Positions 43,908-64,000 are shown, counted from the first letter of the stretch. The stretch: 64,000 nt of DNA from Eledone cirrhosa (GCA_964016885.1 OZ024740.1:226548001-226612000); one strand, 5' to 3'. Program-made: numbers and translations. The notes: generated by a model from the letters alone, not told the origin.

Positions 43908-43975
43908 GATATATGGCGTCAGCCGGATGGCTGGAACAGGTAAAAGAGTATATATATATGGAGTATATATATATA

Positions 43976-44585
43976 TGGTGGCTGCCAACTCGTTTTCGAG
44001 TACGGCCACTACTTTATATCCATGTAGGAGAACCCCTACCGATGCGCTGAACGAGTGTCACTTTTTAGTCCAGCCAGCGACTTGAAAACTCTGGTACAAA
44101 CACTACACTTGTGACAATTATTGACACATAGTGCTGGGCCCATGGTACCATGTGACGACAAGTGCAGAGAGATCTCCAGATATAAAGCAATGCCTGTGCC
44201 GTGAAGCTTTTATAGTGAGCAAAGGCACTGCACAAAGCCAGTCCCACTCTCTTAACCAAGATGATATTTACCAAAAAGAAGAACAAGTCAACATCATTGG
44301 ATACCATCAGAGTTGCAGGTGTTATATCAGAGTTTTCCTTCTCCTAGAATTCTGCCTTGACAAAGGCTAAGGGGTCATCTCTCCCGGTGATATTGGATGG
44401 CCATTGACTCTTAAGAGATCCTTTGCCCTTTGACAGGTTTTGTTTTTAGTCCTGCAGGATGTCCAAAGTCACCCTCCTCACCAAGAAACCTTGGTGGGGT
44501 TGTCAGTTTAGTCGCCAACGACCCGACCATGAGACAGGTTGTACTGGGATACATGTGACCAGTAGCACCAACTGGTGACCTGACA
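43976..44585 (-). mobile_element. Non-autonomous RTE-derived element (LINE 5' UTR plus LINE 3' hairpin, no ORF)
   Basis: Minus strand of 44187-44388 aligns with LINE 50241-50464. Its 3' end TGGCCGTACTCGAAAACGAGTTGGCAGCCACCA(TA)n matches LINE 54341-54373. Confidence 0.85.
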
Positions 44586-44616
44586 TATATATACATACAT
44601 ATATATATACACATAT

Positions 44617-44671
<55 letters not shown>

Positions 44672-50190: not shown

Positions 50191-50493
50191 GCGCGGGGAC
50201 ATAGAAATAATCGGGCTGGATGCCCGATCGCGCAGTTAAACCACTGGGAGTGAAGAACCCCTAGCCCATGTCAGGGTATTCTTCTAGGAGAAGGCATCTC
50301 AGGAAACTGGGTTAACTCCGATATAAAACCTGCGGCTCAGTAGTTACCGATGATGTTGATCTTTTCTTCTTTTCGGGTTATAGCTACTGTCGCTCAGAGA
50401 GTGGGATTGGTTCAGTGCACAGTCTTTCCTCACTTTAAAAATATTCGTCACGCACAGGCATTGCACGAGTGCATTAATAATTATTAATAGTGT

Positions 50494-50528
<35 letters not shown>

Positions 50529-50533
50529 TATTA

Positions 50534-50566
<33 letters not shown>

Positions 50567-53500
50567 CCCAATTCAATGATGTTCCAGAACAATGTAAACG
50601 AGATAATTGCCAATTTGGGTTCTGGAACAAAAAAGATCATTGGCAATAAGGGCAGGGGCCCCAAGTTATCACAACCTGGGCCCGCCCGTCATCGTGCCAT
50701 TGTAATAGAGCCAAACAGGGCATTTAGTCTTGGCTGCTGGAACGTACGGACGCTGCTTGACAGGGATTCTTTGGAGCGTCCTGAACGAAGGACCGCTCTT
50801 GTTGCGAAGGAGCTTCGACGTTACGATCTTGACATCGTGGCTTTGTCTGAGACGAGGTTAGCTGGAGATGGTCATCTTACGGAATTTTGTGGAGAATATA
50901 CATTCTTCTGGAAAGGAAGAGATGAAGGAACCAGAAGAGAGGCTGGGGTAGGATTTGCTGTTAAGACTGTACTGGTGAATAAATTGGAAGAATTCCCAGT
51001 GGGGATTAGTGAGCGTCTTATGTCCATGAGAGTTCCGCTGGACAAGGGAAGATATGCTACCCTGGTGAGTGTGTATGCTCCAACTATGAATTCTGTCGAT
51101 GAAGAAAAACTGTCCTTTTACCATGCCTTGAAAGGTGTTTTAAGAAATATCCCTCAGGCAGACAAAGTCATCGTGCTTGGTGACTTTAATGCTAGAGTGG
51201 GTAGGGATTTTAACACATGGAATGTAATCGGAAGGCATGGGGTGGGAAAGTGTAACAGCAATGGTATGCTCTTGCTGCAGATGTGTGAGGAGCTGGATCT
51301 GTGTGTTACCAACACCATGTTCCAACAAAAGAACAAATTCAAGACCACATGGATGCATCCTGCATCTAAGGAATGGCATCTTTTGGACTACGTCCTAGTC
51401 AGGATGCGTGACAGACAGGATGTGCGGTGTGTTCGTGTTCTTCGTGGAGCTGAGTGCTGGACGGACCACCGCCTGGTACGCGCAAAAGTGAATCTAATCA
51501 CCAAACGTAAAATCCGGGCTCCTGGTGTTACCCTGCCCAAAAGATTGAATGCTGCTCGTCTTAAGGATAAAAATGTGAAGAGGACATTGGAAGAAGAGAT
51601 GCAGGCTGCAGATCTTGGTGAGGATTGGCCGACCCTTAAAAAGTCGGTTTATGATGTAGGCAGACGTGTTCTGGGATTGGTGCAGAGAAAACATCAGGAC
51701 TGGTTTAATGAGAAAGATGTGCATATAGATGACTTGTTGGCTGATAAGAGGCGCGCTCTGTCACGCTACTTGACGGCAAGACCACAGGAGAGGAATACGT
51801 TGCATGAGGAGCTCAGGGATGTAAAATCACGTGTTAGGCGGAGTCTTTCTCAGATGAAGGATCAGTGGTGGAGTGAGAAGGCTGGTGAGATACAAACTGC
51901 GTCTGATTGCAATAACACAAAGCTGTTGTACAGTCTCTTGCGTGAGGTTTATGGACCGTCTTCTTCTCTGGTGACACCGATTCGCAGCAGGGATGGCAAA
52001 GAACTTCTTCGTGACTCACAGGGAATTCTACGAAGGTGGCGGGAGCACTTTGATGATCTTTTGAATCAGCCGTCTGTCGTCAGTGAAGATTTCCTCAATC
52101 TCATTCCGGAAAGTCCTGTGAAAGTAGCTCTCGCAGAGCCTCCGACACTTGTGGAGGTTGCAGTGGCTATTTCGAAGCTGAACAGTGGAAGATCTCCAGG
52201 TATGGATGGCATACATGCTGAGCTCCTACAATATGGTGGTGAGAGACTCCTGCAACATCTTCACTCTCTGTTTGGAGGGATATGGGCTAATGAATCCGTG
52301 CCTGAGGACTGGAGAGATGCAGTAATGGTGGTCTTGTACAAGGGAAAGGGTAACAGGAATGATTGTGGGAACTACAGAGGTATATCATTGCTTTCTGTCG
52401 TGGGGAAAGTTTTATGTAGGGTGCTTCTGGACCGTCTGCTGACACACATTGCAGATTGTGTCCTTCCTGAAAGTCAATCTGGTTTTCGTGTTGGACGCGG
52501 CACTACTGATATGATCTTCTCAGCTAGACAGCTCCAGGAGAAGTGCATTGAACAGGGCTTGGATCTGTATCAGGTTTTTGTCGATCTGACAAAGGCTTTC
52601 GATACTGTCAACAGAGATGCATTATGGAAGGTTCTCCAGAAACTTGGTTGCCCTGATAAGTTCCTTGCTTTAGTTAGGTCTTTCCATGACGACATGAAGG
52701 CTTGGGTTAATGTCGGAGGTAACATGTCGGAGCCTATCTCAGTAAAAAATGGAGTGAAACAGGGGGATATTCCAGCACCGACCCTGTTTGCCATATACTT
52801 TGCAATGGTTTTCTGTATTGCATTCAGGAATTGCGAGCATGGTGTTTACATCCGATATCGAACCTCAGGCAGCATATTTAACATCAGGCGCTTTGCTGCG
52901 AAGACAAAAGTATTTACATCAGTCATAAGAGACCTCTTGTATGCAGATGATTGCGATCTTGTAGCGCACACAGAGAGTGATATGCAGCACATTTTGAATG
53001 TATTTTCTGACGCTTGCACTGCCCTGGGTTTGACTGTCAGTCTCAAGAAAACCGTCGTCATGTACCAACCTGCACCTGGTGGGCAGTACACTGAACCAAA
53101 CATCTATGTGTATGGCAAACGACTTGGAGTGGTTGATCAGTTTGTCTACCTGGGAAGCACTGTCAATCGATACGGCAACCTTGACAGTGAAATCTCACTT
53201 AGGATTAGGAAAGCAAGTGATGCTTTCGGAAAGCTAGAAAGGCGACTCTGGGGTCGGCGAGACATATGCAGGAGGACAAAGGTAAAGGTGTACAGGGCAT
53301 GTGTACTCTCTTGTCTTCTTTATGCCTGCGAGACCTGGGTCACATATCGACGCCACCTTAAGCAATTGGAGCGTTTCCATCAGATGTGTCTCAGACGGAT
53401 ACATGGCGTTCGCTGGAGGGACCACATCAGTGATGTCGAGATTTTGGAAAGCTCTATGTGTGACAGTATAGAAGCTCTTGTGCTTAAGCAGCGACTCCGT

Positions 53501-54129
53501 TGGAGTGGTCACCTTGCCAGGATGAAGGATTCTAGAATACCAAAACAACTCTTCTATGGAGAGTTGGTTAAAGGAAAACGACCGCCACATAAACCAAAAA
53601 AGAGGTATAAGGATTCCTTGAAGGCCTCTCTGAAAGACGCTAACATCTCTGCTGATACATGGGAAAATATTGCTGCTGATCGTAATAAATGGAGAAAGAC
53701 TGTATATGAGGGAAAAGTTGCCTTTGAGGCATCTCGAATCGCACACGAGAAAGTAAAGCGGGACGTGAGGAAGGGTATTGCTGTTGCACTTCCAGACGGC
53801 GAGGGTCCTCCTATGTTTCTGACATGCAGCGTCTGTGCGAGACTCTGCCTAAGCAAAGCTGGACTCGAAAGTCATCTTCGCAGTCATAAAGTAAGACCAG
53901 TGGTTGACTACCAGGCTGCAGTTGGAGATGCTACTCATCATGCTTGCCAAACATGTGGTAGAGAATGTAAATCAGCAGGAGGACTCAAGCGACATGCAAA
54001 AGTACACGAACTCCAACCACAGCCGACTATTCCCAGTAAATGTTTTGGTTGCCGACTCTGTGCAAGACATTTTGGATCATTGGCTGGGCTAAAAAGCCAC
54101 ATTCGATCGCAGCACTGTTAGTTGCTATC

Positions 54130-57851: not shown

Positions 57852-59104
57852 TATATATATATATATATATACATATATACATATGTATATATACATATAT
57901 ACATATGTATATATATACATATATACATATATATATAGAGAGAGGGGGGGGGGCAAGCAAACGTACATACACACACAAGTAAATATGCAAATACATACAC
58001 ACACGTAAATTGAACAAACTTTCGCTTTAGTGTTGTCGGAAAGTCGCACACACAGACACAAACTCCGTGAGAGGTTCACTGACACATATGAGCACCTATA
58101 TAGAAAATGAACACGCACACACATAAATACACTCACATACACACACGCAACGTACACTCACTCACTCACTCACTCACTCACACACATACACGTGAGCACA
58201 TGCTTACTTCCATCTAGACATACACACTTAAGCGTGAAATGAAACCATGTGATCGTATAAAGACGAATAAATCAACGCACACATACACATACGTGCGAGC
58301 ACACAGATACAGACTTAGACACATACACACACTTATCTACATTTACGTATGTACATTAAGATAGCTGCATACATACGTATACAGAGACACACACACACAC
58401 ATACACTTATATACAGAGATATACACACACATTTATGCACACAGACTCGCATGCTGTCATCTGAAAGTTGACAAGCATTCATACATACACACAGAGAGAA
58501 ACATACGCACATACACCCGCACATAGACACAGACATAAGCATACACTTATCCACATTTATGTACATCAGAATGGTTGCATACTCACGTATACAGACACAC
58601 ACTTATAAACAAATAATATACACATACATATATGCTCACAGACTTGCATGCTGTCACCTGAGCGTTGACATGCATTCACATACACACGCGCGCGTACACA
58701 CATACATGCATTGATGTGCACAAATACACGCAGATGGTGGTTACAGTGGCGGCGTTGATGATGATGGTGATGGCGGAGACGATGGTAGGGAATGGGGGAG
58801 GAGAAAGTTGTTTATAGTAGCAATCATCATCATCACCGCCATCATCGTCATAGCCATCGTAGTTGTCATCGTCATCATCATCATCATCATCATCATACAG
58901 GTGACCAGGGTTAGATTTAGACTTAAGTGGGCCGCTGGGCACTTCAGGTTTTGTGGGCCCCTCATACACAAAAGATTAGAATACACAGCAAACTCCCCAT
59001 TTTTCATATCAAAGTTAGGTTGGTGCAAGTAAATGGAAATTATTGTGTACAGTGCTCAGGTGCACTACAACTCTCAAAGGTGCATGTATAGTACATAGAA
59101 TAAT

Positions 59105-59283
59105 TGTTTCTACTTTTGGCACAAGGCCAGCAATTACCCATTGCATTACTAGAACTTTATTTTATCGACCCCGTAAGGATGAAAGGCAAAGTTAACTTCG
59201 GCGGGATTTGAACTCAGAATGGCAAGGGCCGTAACTCTATACGTCAAAGCATGGCGGCTGACCCTCTACTGATACTGCCAATC
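59105..59283 (-). mobile_element. SINE family B with an 11-bp target-site duplication
   Basis: CATAGAATAAT at 59094-59104 and 59284-59294. A paralogous empty site is visible at ~61060-61080. Confidence 0.9.
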
Positions 59284-59531
59284 CATAGAATAATGTACAA
59301 ATATCAGGAAAGTGAACAGTGTATGAGTCATGATATACACACAGATACACTATGCACACACATGGGCGGAGGTGGTGAGAACAGACCTCAGATCGCTTAA
59401 ACTCACCGAGGAGATGACGAAGGGCCGTTACAAGTGGAGAGATGCTGAATAGGACCTGTCCAACCCTTGCAAGCAGGGAACAGTGGACGTAATATGATGC
59501 TGACGATGTATGTATATATATATATATATAT

Positions 59532-59881
59532 CATCATCATCATCATCATCATCATCATTTTACGTCCGCTTTTCCCTGCTTGCAAGGGTGGGACGGGAAC
59601 TGATTCTGGCTTGATTTCTACAGCTGGATGCCCTTCTTAACACCAACTTCATTTACAGTGAGTGCTGGGTGCTTTTTTTGCCGTGGCACCTCCACGACCA
59701 CTTTGCAGTGGAATGATAGGGACCCCAGTCCCTATCATCTCATTTCTACAGCTGAGTAAACTGGAGCAATGTGAAATAAAGTGTCTTGCTCAAGGAATCA
59801 ACACATCACCCGGTCTGAGAATTGAACTCACAACCTTTCGATTGCAAGGCCAATGCTCTAACCACTAAGCCATGTGCCTCC
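59532..59881 (-). mobile_element. SINE family A, full copy
   Basis: Matches family A end to end. Confidence 0.9.
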
Positions 59882-59902
59882 ATCTATATATATATATATA
59901 TA

Positions 59903-60512
59903 TGGTGGCTGCCAACTCGTTTTCGAGTACGGCCACTACTTTATATCCATCTAGAAGAACCCCTACCGATGCCCTGAACGAGTGTCACTTTTTAGTCCAG
60001 CCAGCGACTTGAAAACTCTGGTACAAACACTACACTTGTGACAATGATTGACACATAGTGCTGGGCCCATGGTACCATGTGACGACATGTGCAGAGAGAT
60101 CTCCAGATATAAAGCAATGCCTGTGCCGTGAAGCTTTTATAGTGAGCAAAGGCACTGCACAAAGCCAGTCCCACTCTCTTAACCAAGATGATATTTACCA
60201 AAAAGAAGAACAAGTCAACATCATTGGATACCATCAGGGTTGCAGGTGTTATATCAGAGTTTTCCTTCTCATAGAATTCTGCCTTGACAAAGGCTAAGGG
60301 GGTCATCTCTCCCGGTGATTTTGGATGGCCATTGACTCTTAAGAGCTCCTTTGCTCTTTGAAAGGTTTTGTTTTTAGTCCTGCAGGATGTCCTAAGTCAC
60401 CCTCCTCACCAAGAAACCTTGGTGGGGTTGCAAGTTTAGTCGCCAACGACCCGACCATGTGACGGGTTGTAATGGGATACATGTTACCAGTAGCACCAAC
60501 TGGTGACCTGAC

Positions 60513-60513
<1 letters not shown>
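59903..60513 (-). mobile_element. Non-autonomous RTE-derived element, second full copy
   Basis: Colinear, high-identity match to 43976-44585 with the same ends, with (TA)n on both sides. A tail-only third copy lies at 60571-60635. Confidence 0.88.
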
Positions 60514-60571
<58 letters not shown>

Positions 60572-60808
60572 GGTGGCTGCCAACTCGTTTTCGAGTATGG
60601 CCACTACTTTATATCCATGTAGGAGAACCTCTACCAATAATTTGTTGAGTGCTTTATATCAGTTATAAAAATATTTGCTTGTTGTATCCCAACAATTTAA
60701 ATAGAACTTCTACATATATATATATATATACGTATATATATAATTACACACACATATATATATGTATATGTCTATATACATATATGTATGTATAAGTATA
60801 TATAATAA

Positions 60809-60999
60809 TAATTGTTTCTACGTTAGGCACAAGGCCAGCAAATACCCAGTACATTACTGGTACTTTATTTTATCGACCCCGTAAGGATGAAAGGTAAACT
60901 TAACCTTGGCTTGATTTGAACTCAGAATTTCAAGGAGCATAACTCTATGCGACAAAGCATGGCACCCAACCCTCTACTGATACTGCCAATCCACCACCC
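60809..60999 (-). mobile_element. SINE family B copy
   Basis: Reverse complement of the family B consensus. Confidence 0.85.
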
Positions 61000-61155
61000 T
61001 ATTTATTTAATAATAATGAAAATGTTGTACAGTGCTCAGGTGCACTACATTCATCAAAGGTGCATGAATAATGTACAAAAGTCAGGAAAGTAAATAGTGT
61101 ATGGAAAAAGGTGGTGGTGGGAGCAGGCTGGCCCCTATATTGTTAACTGGATTCA

Positions 61156-62165
61156 TTAATGATTGGAACCAGTGACCAGCTTGTCCATAGTAGAAAGTCT
61201 GTCATGGTTGAGGAATTCTTTGAGTATCAGGAAGAATCTATTGCTGGCTGTTTTGAGAGTGGTGTGGAGATCATCTGTCCAGCCCAGTGTGTCTGTAGTG
61301 GTCTGGACACTGTCAAACATCTGTAGCATCAAACAGAAGGCATCCATCTTGGCACTGACTCAACTGAGCTGGGTCGGTGGAGTATCAGGCATCCGACACC
61401 AGGGCGCGAGCTCATTGTCGTAGCAACTGTGGAATTGCTCCAGCCTGGCGTTCATGCTAGCAACCATGGTGTCCAGTGATCAACAGGTGTCTGCGACTTC
61501 TTCGCAGGTGTAGCAATTGTAGAGGTACTTATCTTTAATCACTGTCAACTCTTCTAATTCGTCATTCAACTCTTGGACAAGTTTCTTTGCAACATCTTTG
61601 AACTTCTCTATCAGGTCTGTGACTTTGTTCCTTGATATATTTTCTAAATTCTTGTGTTGAGACTTCATGATGCAGACAGCAACATCCCCTGAAGTAAATC
61701 AACCCTAGGAGAGAAAAGTCCGTTTATCACAGTTGGGTGGCTCCCAATCTCCTGGATAAACTGATCTCCCTCTACATACTCCTTGTCCAAATTTGAGGGA
61801 TCATGTTCTCCATGACAGGTTTCTGAAAGTTCCAAAAGAAGGGAGAAGAACTGAAGGTGGTACCTTTTAGTCGCTGTGCCCTTAATAAGGTTGATCCTGT
61901 CTGGTGAACAGAAACCCAGGGAGGACATCAAAGTTAAGAGCTCTTTTAAATAGCTCTCATTATCAAAACGAACCAATTTGTTCATGGTGACCAACATTGA
62001 GGGTTCAATTCTACACAATAGCCATTCAATAACTTTCTTCCTCTCCTCCGATAGTGTCACCAGCTGGCCACAGATCAACTCCTGGTCAACCCCGAAGACA
62101 ATGGAACAGTCCAAGGCCTCTAAATGTTGCCGGAGACTTTCAACTGAATTGAAATAAACCGCCAT
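61156..62165 (-). pseudogene. HAUS7: Processed pseudogene of a HAUS augmin-like complex subunit 7 homologue
   Basis: Three ORF-track pieces join into ~336 codons. LEALDC..SEERKKVIEWLLCRIEP..LGFCSPDRINLIKG..LQFFSLLLE and F..CYDNELAPWC resemble HAUS7 blocks recalled from memory (LKDLNC..SEYRLEILEWMCTRVWP..LCAPDDQELLKG..LHFMDQLLD; FLQVYDDELGECC). There are no introns, one 1-bp frameshift at ~61690, and in-frame TGA stops at 61480-61482 and 61360-61362. Confidence 0.8.
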
Positions 62166-62799
62166 TATACATACAGGTTTTCAAAAATTCAAAAATCCTA
62201 ACCATCCTAAAACTAAAGAGCCCAGCTGAGGGCACAAATAGATTGCTATGGCCATTGCTGGTGGGGGCCCCCACTACAGAGGGCCCAGAGCAATTTCCCC
62301 TTCATCCCCCATTAAATCCAGTCTTGTAGGTGACAGTAAAAGCTGTGCTGGTAATGTTGTTTATTATATATAGTAAGTGAAATGATTATGATGATGGTGG
62401 TGGAGGTGGTGGTGATGGTGGTGATGGTGATGGGGTAGTGATGGTGATGTTAATGGTGGTGGTGGTGGTGGTGGTGACAGCATTGGAAATGAGAAATAAT
62501 CCTGCTGTTATTGTTTTGCCCCAGGTCAACACTGATCCTGCAAACCTATGATCAAAATTGTTCCAATTGTGACCAACCTGTCTTTTTGTATAGAGTGAAC
62601 TATATTGTTAGTATGTCCTTCCATTTTTAATATTGAAAGGTGTGATTTGAGGGAGACCTGGCTTTTATTTCTAGCAGACTAATAGAGGCTCAGTTGATTT
62701 TGCTGTTATGTATGCTGTCATTGCTGGAGGTGGCAGTACCTAATGGTGATGGTGGCGTGATGGTTGTGTTGTGGGAGGTGGTGAGGGTGAGGGTGAGGG

Positions 62800-63930
62800 T
62801 AGTAATGGTGGGAGGTGGTGGGGTTGGTGAGGGTAGTAATGGTGGTGGAGAAGCTGTATGTGGTGGTGGTAGTAGTTGTGATAGTGGTGGTGATGTTGAT
62901 GTCGTTGTTAGTGATGATAGTGATGGCAGTGATGTTGGTGGTAGTGATGTTGGTGGTGGTGGTGGTGGTGGTGGTGGCGGTTGCGATAGTGGTGATGATG
63001 TTGGTGGTGGTAGTAGTTGTGATAGTGGTGGTGATGTTGATGTTGTTAGTGATGATAGTGATGGCAGTGATGTTGGTGGTAGTGATGTTGATGTTGGTGG
63101 TGGTGGTGGTGGTTGTGATAGTGGTGATGATGTTGGTGGTGGTAGTAGTTGTGATAGTGGTGGTGATGTTGATGTTGTTGTTAGTGATGATAGTGATGGC
63201 AGTGATGTTGGTGGTAGTGATGTTGATGTTGGTGGTGGTGGTGGTGGTAGTTCTGATAGTGGAGGTGATGTTGATGTTGGTGGTGGTGGTAGTTGTGATA
63301 GTGGTAGTGGAAGTAGTTGTGATAGTGGTGATGGTGTTGGTGGTGGTGGTGGTGGTAGTTGTGAAAGTGGTAGTGGTGGTATTTGTGATAGTGGTAGTTG
63401 TGAAAGTGGTAGTGATGGTAGTTGTGATAGTGGTGCTGATGTTGGTGGTGGTGGTGGTAGTTGTGATAGTGGTGATGGTGTTGGTGGTGGTGGTGGTAGT
63501 TCTGATAGTGGTAGTGGTGGTAGTTGTGATAGTGGTGATGTTGATGTTGGTGGTGGTGGTGGTAGTTGTGAAAGTGGAAGGGGTGGTAGCTGTGATAGTG
63601 GTGATGGTGTTGGTGGTGGTGGTGGTGGTGGTGGTAGTTGTGAAAGTGGAAGGGGTGGTAGTTGTGATAGTGGTGATGGTGTTGGTGGTGGTGGTGGTGG
63701 TGGTGGTAGTTGTGAAAGTGGAAGGGGTGGTAGTTGTGATAGTGGTGATGATGTTGGTGGTGGTGGTGGTGGCAGTTGTGAAAGTGGTAGTGGTGGTATT
63801 TGTGATAGTGGTGATGATGTTGGTGGTGGTGGTGGTGGTGGTGGTGGTGGTAGTTGTGATAGTGGTAGTGGTGGTAGTTGTGATAGTGGTGGTGGCTAAG
63901 GTGGCTATGGTGGTAGCTATGGTGGTGGTA
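62800..63930. repeat. GGT/GAT-derived degenerate minisatellite (GGTGGTAGTTGTGATAGT core)
   Basis: Tandem degenerate units, almost C-free on the plus strand, with internal block duplications. Confidence 0.9.
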
Positions 63931-64000
63931 TCAATAGTGATTGAACCACCAATGCTGATAACTCACTGAATTCTTCCTCATTCCTACAATTCAACCTCCC

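Follow-up and report, generated by a model that had tools for sequence, protein, structure and literature searches.

LINE-tailed HAUS7 retrocopies and a copy nested within a hAT-type MITE of Eledone cirrhosa

Tail-sharing retroelements and the HAUS7 locus

Many long interspersed elements (LINEs) are considered to copy only RNA that carries the 3′ sequence of the LINE itself, and short interspersed elements (SINEs) exploit them by sharing that sequence (Ohshima 2013, PMC3747384; Kojima 2020, PMC7245038). CR1-type tails are counted there among the shared SINE/LINE tails. The sequence requirement of CR1, according to PMC5470649, restricts which cellular RNAs hitchhike, and few retrocopies are expected in genomes whose LINEs insist on a 3′ end of their own (PMC5470649, PMC3747384). 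The present study concerns a retrocopy of the cell-division gene HAUS7 with a LINE-derived tail, which lies within a hAT-type miniature inverted-repeat transposable element (MITE) of Eledone cirrhosa. The analysed stretch of 64,000 nt (G000:C1:226548001-226612000, assembly of 3.0 Gb) is referred to as the window. A sequence-only reading of the window had described a HAUS7-like retrocopy in a hAT-type shell that encloses 3.4 kb. The shell and the intron loss were borne out, and the intact coding sequence was not; that observation was largely right, its Pack-type interpretation is unsupported, and nested insertion is established as far as the assembly allows.

The mRNA of HAUS7 probably carries in its 3′ untranslated region (UTR) the last ~110 bases of a LINE, apparently of the CR1/L2 type by its motifs, and would be copied by the enzyme of that LINE. 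Such a system resembles the SINE/LINE pairs of PMC3747384 and PMC7245038, in which an RNA of other origin carries the tail of a partner LINE at its 3′ end and presumably borrows the enzyme of that LINE through it. It differs from the pairs described there in that the head is a spliced protein-coding mRNA, not a small-RNA promoter, and in that about a dozen copies derive from a single-copy gene, the source seemingly being the gene itself. The L1-derived processed pseudogenes reviewed in PMC5470649 show the same exact intron loss, 5′ truncation and decay, whereas the HAUS7 copies end in a LINE tail, without poly(A). A tail-bearing HAUS7 mRNA looks like one that would meet the 3′ requirement of CR1-type elements. 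No described case of an mRNA whose UTR contains a LINE tail and which is copied by way of it was found in the literature searched, with subscription papers outside its scope; PMC6445056, considered as a precedent, does not qualify.

HAUS7 retrocopies and the origin of their tail

The cargo of the window locus is a dead HAUS7 retrocopy (processed pseudogene) on the minus strand at 61156..62165, extending from the ATG (62165) to the stop codon (61156) and lacking all six mapped introns of the parent gene. The frame is shifted by a 1-nt deletion near 61692 and interrupted by stops at 61480 and 61360; further deletions of 12 and 15 nt are in frame. Where a full intronless HAUS7-like coding sequence had been proposed, the ATG-to-stop span, the HAUS7 identity and the intron loss hold, and the intactness does not. 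The identity was established from PDB chains and homologues. The near-intact sister copy at G000:C1:305.565M (C1:305.6M, also referred to as the young copy) matched the human HAUS7 chain 7sqk_G with an E-value of 3.7e-9, as well as three Xenopus-type chains. The nearest proteins to the cargo come from Octopus sinensis and O. bimaculoides (50-51% identity), and the Octopus homologues match PF06694 above the cut-off. Pfam gave no match above the cut-off for the three open reading frame pieces of the window or for the near-intact copy.

The parent gene is located on C131, a 24-kb contig on which seven exons, separated by six GT-AG introns, precede the contig end. Its 3′ exons were not found in the assembly. 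Of runs X1 and X4, the latter holds the end of the last mapped intron, and the 3′ exons were not seen there either (8 loose ends, 29 pieces outside the view). The near-intact copy (L006 5139-6149) reads through 337 codons, counted from the ATG, and has small deletions towards its C-terminus, and a contig of run X4 holds an intronless HAUS7 version without its 3-nt deletion. This copy, a candidate retrogene, may be polymorphic.

Downstream of the stop codon, the window copy continues on the minus strand through a HAUS7-specific 3′ UTR of ~50 nt, common to other retrocopies (61104..61155), into a LINE-derived 3′ tail with ATT repeats and no poly(A) (61005..61103), 93.6% identical to the LINE tail consensus. 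When the 3′ part of HAUS7 was used as query, with all 13 candidates scored, 16 matches were obtained at 13 distinct loci: the window, C1:305.6M, C1:294.4M, C1:340.9M, C3:294.4M, C3:25.1M, C4:85.6M, C4:233.1M, and one locus each on C12, C15, C23, C26 and C1759. Most of the dispersed copies are 5′-truncated; intron loss is demonstrable for four loci, and the remainder cover only that part of the gene whose exons are unmapped. Twelve of the 13 loci continue ~50 nt past the stop into one ~110-nt tail with ATT repeats. The junction between HAUS7 and the tail is identical in 11 of these 12, the C1759 copy having a deletion across it, and A runs behind the tail do not exceed 4 in any of the 12. At the C1759 locus (L078, 10.8-11.5 kb), a piece of HAUS7 coding sequence, ~40-60 nt long, has been multiplied in tandem to form an array.

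For repeat and junction searches, the best 40 candidates were scored each time, the candidate totals being far larger. The tail is a repeat of high copy number in its own right, and the search with it showed a sharp boundary at query base 38 (best 40 of 1,074 candidates). LINE-type DNA, a common LINE 3′ UTR, lies upstream of the tail in 22 of 26 other tail loci; four longer LINE copies retain remains of a reverse transcriptase, with RVT_1 above the cut-off in two. Upstream of one LINE copy (L136 4200-5279), a Cys-rich frame of 360 codons with only a weak Pfam match is possibly a PHD-type ORF1, which would fit the PHD-type ORF1 described for CR1/L2 LINEs in PMC4120745. One of the four tail loci without LINE-type DNA upstream, C3:283.08M, carries ~25 nt of HAUS7-like UTR; this weak resemblance may mark a further, very short HAUS7 copy.

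The copies differ in their distance from the parent. Over exons 1-7, the distance to the parent is 3.3% for the young copy and 13.1% for the window copy. Informative sites were distributed 6:0:0 for (parent, young copy) versus (window, old copy), and the result was the same whichever of two old copies was used (181 and 125 columns, which overlap). Of 196 residues, 8 retain the O. sinensis state in the window and have a common new state in the parent and the young copy, and 0 retain it in the young copy against the parent and the window. A tree of 12 HAUS7 3′ parts was mostly unresolved, with one of nine branches well supported. Judged from these substitutions, the copies branched off the parent line at various times and bear the tail at the same base whether they are early or late. 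Because early and late copies share the junction base, a tail lodged in the 3′ UTR of the parent is the simplest reading; we infer its place there from the copies, since the assembly lacks the last exons of the parent. A particular variant of the tail is present in 4 of 12 HAUS7 tails and in none of 26 tails of the LINE type (Fisher p 0.007, the rows not being independent), as expected for a tail inherited through the gene.

These data bear on two other origins of the tail. According to the first, which is rather improbable, the parent is tail-less and a fresh chimera arises each time, the enzyme switching from LINE RNA to HAUS7 mRNA at one short homology. Tails near the LINE consensus whatever the age of the copy would fit such switching, the first bases of the tail recur upstream in the LINE 3′ UTR, which makes a short homology plausible, and the 3′ end of the parent is unseen; on the other hand, the tail variant is private to HAUS7 copies and the 11 identical junctions show no spread. 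According to the second, which is unlikely, one early chimeric retrogene served as a SINE-like master while the intron-bearing gene was always tail-less. A master of this kind would account for the single junction and the private variant, and a near-intact intronless copy does exist. It is opposed by the young copy, which shares derived changes with the intron-bearing gene and not with the window copy, and it would require either gene conversion or that a tail was captured twice at one and the same base.

A tail carried by the parent gene itself, copied by the LINE enzyme, remains the preferred reading, and several observations weigh against it. The tails are 88-97% identical to the LINE consensus (97% in the young C12 copy), nearer than the synonymous sites of the parent line seem to allow; it may simply be that copies arise only with an intact tail. 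One of the 13 HAUS7 loci lacks the tail, and one residue has a new state common to the young copy and the window and not to the parent. Folding of the tail was no better than that of shuffles (z 0 to -1.5), with a small hairpin in two of four folds. The tail has never been seen on an mRNA or on the parent, whose 3′ exons are absent from the assembly. Finally, only two control genes were used, with profiles that miss 5′-truncated copies, and the fair comparison is of 2-4 long HAUS7 copies with none. These controls, RPL21 and RPS3A, gave no dispersed copies, in keeping with the preferred reading (2 matches of 3 candidates each, a weak test): the former led to two linked intact copies and the latter to two exons of one gene.

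None of four short copies tested as its true last exon has a further HAUS7 exon upstream, the DNA examined being 40 kb for the C12 copy, 30 kb for C23, 10 kb for C15 and ~19 kb for C1759; the remaining short copies were inspected over 1.5 kb only. In a contig of run X1, a HAUS7 3′ part is joined with a further 1.1 kb of DNA that maps behind a LINE copy at C4:323.48M bearing the same tail variant; the join probably belongs to the assembly graph and was not used as evidence.

The events probably ran as follows. A short LINE end would have inserted in sense orientation ~50 nt past the stop codon of the parent HAUS7 gene. The LINE reverse transcriptase would then have primed repeatedly on this tail over a long period, giving at least 12 dispersed, mostly 5′-truncated copies. 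One full-length copy would have entered a resident MITE mid-element, deleting 8-14 bp, and SINEs and a younger LINE end would later have accumulated at its ATT tail. At the target site of the window copy 8-14 bp are deleted, the left side being overwritten by later inserts; at four other HAUS7 copies, target-site duplications (TSDs) comprise one 14-bp repeat in simple sequence, one of 6 bp and two with none clear.

The evidence leans slightly towards HAUS7 being a single-copy housekeeping gene that acts as a protein-coding SINE master, with at least 12 retrotranspositions over a long span and a recent near-intact retrogene, where abundant mRNAs leave few copies. A natural tail-bearing mRNA with a dated series of copies would make the idea that retrocopies are rare where LINEs need a 3′ end of their own testable in one genome, the expectation being that tail-bearing 3′ UTRs predict retrocopy number, and it would offer a route to new retrogenes without L1. 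If true and general, LINE ends in 3′ UTRs, not expression, would set which genes are retrocopied by sequence-specific LINEs.

The MITE shell and the question of mobilisation

Both ends of the locus are halves of one high-copy, 301-bp hAT-type MITE that makes 8-bp TSDs. The left TSD (58898..58905, +) is followed by the left half (58906..59038, +), which has a 14-bp terminal inverted repeat (TIR) and GGGCCC motifs and was delimited with the best 40 of 1,841 candidates and an alignment of 56 copies; its identity to the scored copies is 82-88%. The last 6-7 bases of this half overlap the adjoining LINE tail as microhomology, the real end lying within 59031-59038. The right half with its TIR (62165..62326, +; best 40 of 1,649 candidates) shares 2 nt of microhomology with the sequence just upstream of the parent HAUS7 ATG and is followed by the right TSD (62327..62334, +), which matches the left one at 7 of 8 positions. 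The imperfect TIRs at 58906 and 62326, the subterminal GGGCCC motifs and the TSD had all been noted in the sequence-only reading and are confirmed here. The TIRs of the family consensus match at 12 of 14 positions and those of the window copy at 10 of 14.

Of 58 further loci retrieved through one end or the other, 56 contain both halves, and the spacing between them is usually the same 8 bases; the ends therefore belong to one family and not to two different ones, which had been the point on which the composite reading could have failed. Empty copies are abundant, and the empty consensus, whose recovery had been proposed as a check, was obtained. The family-wide test of the TSD covered 42 copies with readable ends, the window included: 28 of them match at 7-8 of 8 positions, against only 0.12% of 1,722 mismatched flank pairings used as a control, and flank identity averages 0.77 at a length of 8 bp, with no other length exceeding 0.33. 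Given this difference and the peak of the signal at 8 bp, chance does not account for the TSD. An 8-bp TSD and short TIRs are hallmarks of the hAT superfamily. The element resembles known hAT MITEs in length (301 bp), TIR (14 bp), TSD (8 bp), lack of coding capacity and high copy number, its small non-coding body being represented by 1,841 and 1,649 candidates with the left and right end. Both hAT and CR1 families are recorded for Octopus vulgaris in PMC13282606. The shell is ordinary and gives no demonstration of gene-carrying DNA transposons in cephalopods.

The window MITE is 11.7% from the consensus (34/291), mid-range for the family. The HAUS7 branch of the window carries 38 non-synonymous changes over 502 sites, ~8%. 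From these two values we infer that the MITE is older than the retrocopy or of about the same age; the gap between them, which weakens the proposed order of events, is small and based on one copy.

Two alternatives had been put forward for the composite, namely that a retrocopy landed in a resident MITE or that transposition of the composite had multiplied a copy of an augmin gene. A search with the HAUS7/MITE junction gave no second full-length match, the window being the only locus among the best 40 of 1,285 candidates; the gene half was matched by the near-intact copy, the remaining half by other MITEs. The left junction was likewise confined to the window (best 40 of 1,268 candidates). Loci with the same TIR-gene junctions and different TSDs, which had been suggested as a sign of mobilisation, were absent from both scored sets. 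No MITE half was found on the parent contig or in the DNA fetched around other HAUS7 copies, where flanks of mostly 1.5 kb per side were inspected, and 10 kb for the near-intact copy. Single-copy junctions support the first alternative and, together with the lack of a MITE beside other HAUS7 copies, speak against the second. The sequence-only reading had itself held that a single-copy locus would reduce the composite to simple nested insertion, and, with junctions that are single-copy among the scored matches, the locus is therefore such an insertion.

Pack-type mobilisation, by which the hAT shell would have brought the HAUS7 copy here or amplified it, is highly improbable. Recognisable TIRs and a TSD do surround the cargo, and a single transposition with loss of the donor would also leave one copy, though no observation calls for it. 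The junctions and the flanks of the other HAUS7 copies oppose it; in addition, the TIR, TSD and body of the window MITE are as decayed as those of empty copies, and empty 300-bp copies number thousands of candidates. The locus resembles the Pack-TIRs of Tan et al. (2021, PMC8277862) in that host sequence stands as a single copy between two halves of a TIR element, with a small internal deletion, microhomology and capture after insertion of the element. According to that paper, single-copy Pack-TIRs are DNA gap fills, often from nearby, and intronless copies of multi-exon genes were excluded as retroduplicates. The window cargo, unlike theirs, is spliced, and no post-capture transposition is seen here; being an intronless copy, it is therefore not a Pack-TIR by their rule. 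HAUS7 was likely amplified via RNA and the LINE tail, not via the hAT shell. A preference of the LINE for this site in the MITE was also considered and rejected, no second MITE-LINE junction occurring among the best 40 scored.

Nested inserts and other features

Later inserts, SINE-like repeats among them, occupy 59033-60993 of the window, which confirms that nested repeats lie within the shell; the LINE tail at 61005-61103 and a younger one from 59033 had been overlooked. The younger LINE end, a 5′-truncated CR1/L2-type fragment (59033..59360, -) consisting of the tail and ~60 nt of LINE 3′ UTR, forms the left junction and is split by a SINE at 59099-59285. A LINE 3′ junction at the left and a 5′ junction at the right, on one strand, are what a single long read-through RNA primed at this second LINE tail would leave, and the whole 3.1-kb insert could have arisen in that way. 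Such an origin is barely credible: the last ~70 nt of the left fragment are 96-99% identical to 39 other scored loci (best 40), against ~8-13% divergence of the HAUS7 part, and the downstream DNA is absent from every other HAUS7 copy. The youth of the left LINE end therefore argues against arrival as one RNA.

The SINE within this fragment is the first copy of a SINE-like repeat (59099..59285, -), which is bordered by an 11-bp direct repeat and has ~150 matches in the fetched loci. A second copy, 87% identical to it, lies just behind the ATT repeats of the retrocopy (60805..60993, -). The head of the repeat is presumably of tRNA type; ARAGORN found no tRNA in it. One SINE-like family is found repeatedly within the LINE tail or directly behind it, at ATT-rich spots (window; L112, L116-L118, L120, L121), and a target preference for these spots is possible. 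Between the two copies, repeat matches delimit a 3′ fragment at 59360-59510 (+), presumably RTE-like by its motifs, and a SINE-like repeat of ~390 bp at 59510-59900, with identities of 83% and 95-96% across 59360..59900. An unclassified repeat of ~680 bp, bounded by an 89-nt direct repeat (59882..60638), is 95.6% identical to window positions 43964-44644 and gave no Pfam match.

Further observations concern sequences outside the shell. The two RPL21 copies, at C19:14.16M (L149, L150), are intact, inverted and 6.5 kb apart; they share 90% identity, and the coding exon is unbroken in both. A 1.3-kb GGT/GAT-rich minisatellite at 62646-63960 of the window has long low-complexity frames on both strands and no sign of a gene. 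At 50384-54118 (+), a frame of 1,245 codons with an endonuclease, RVT_1 and C-terminal C2H2 fingers is apparently an intact LINE ORF2.

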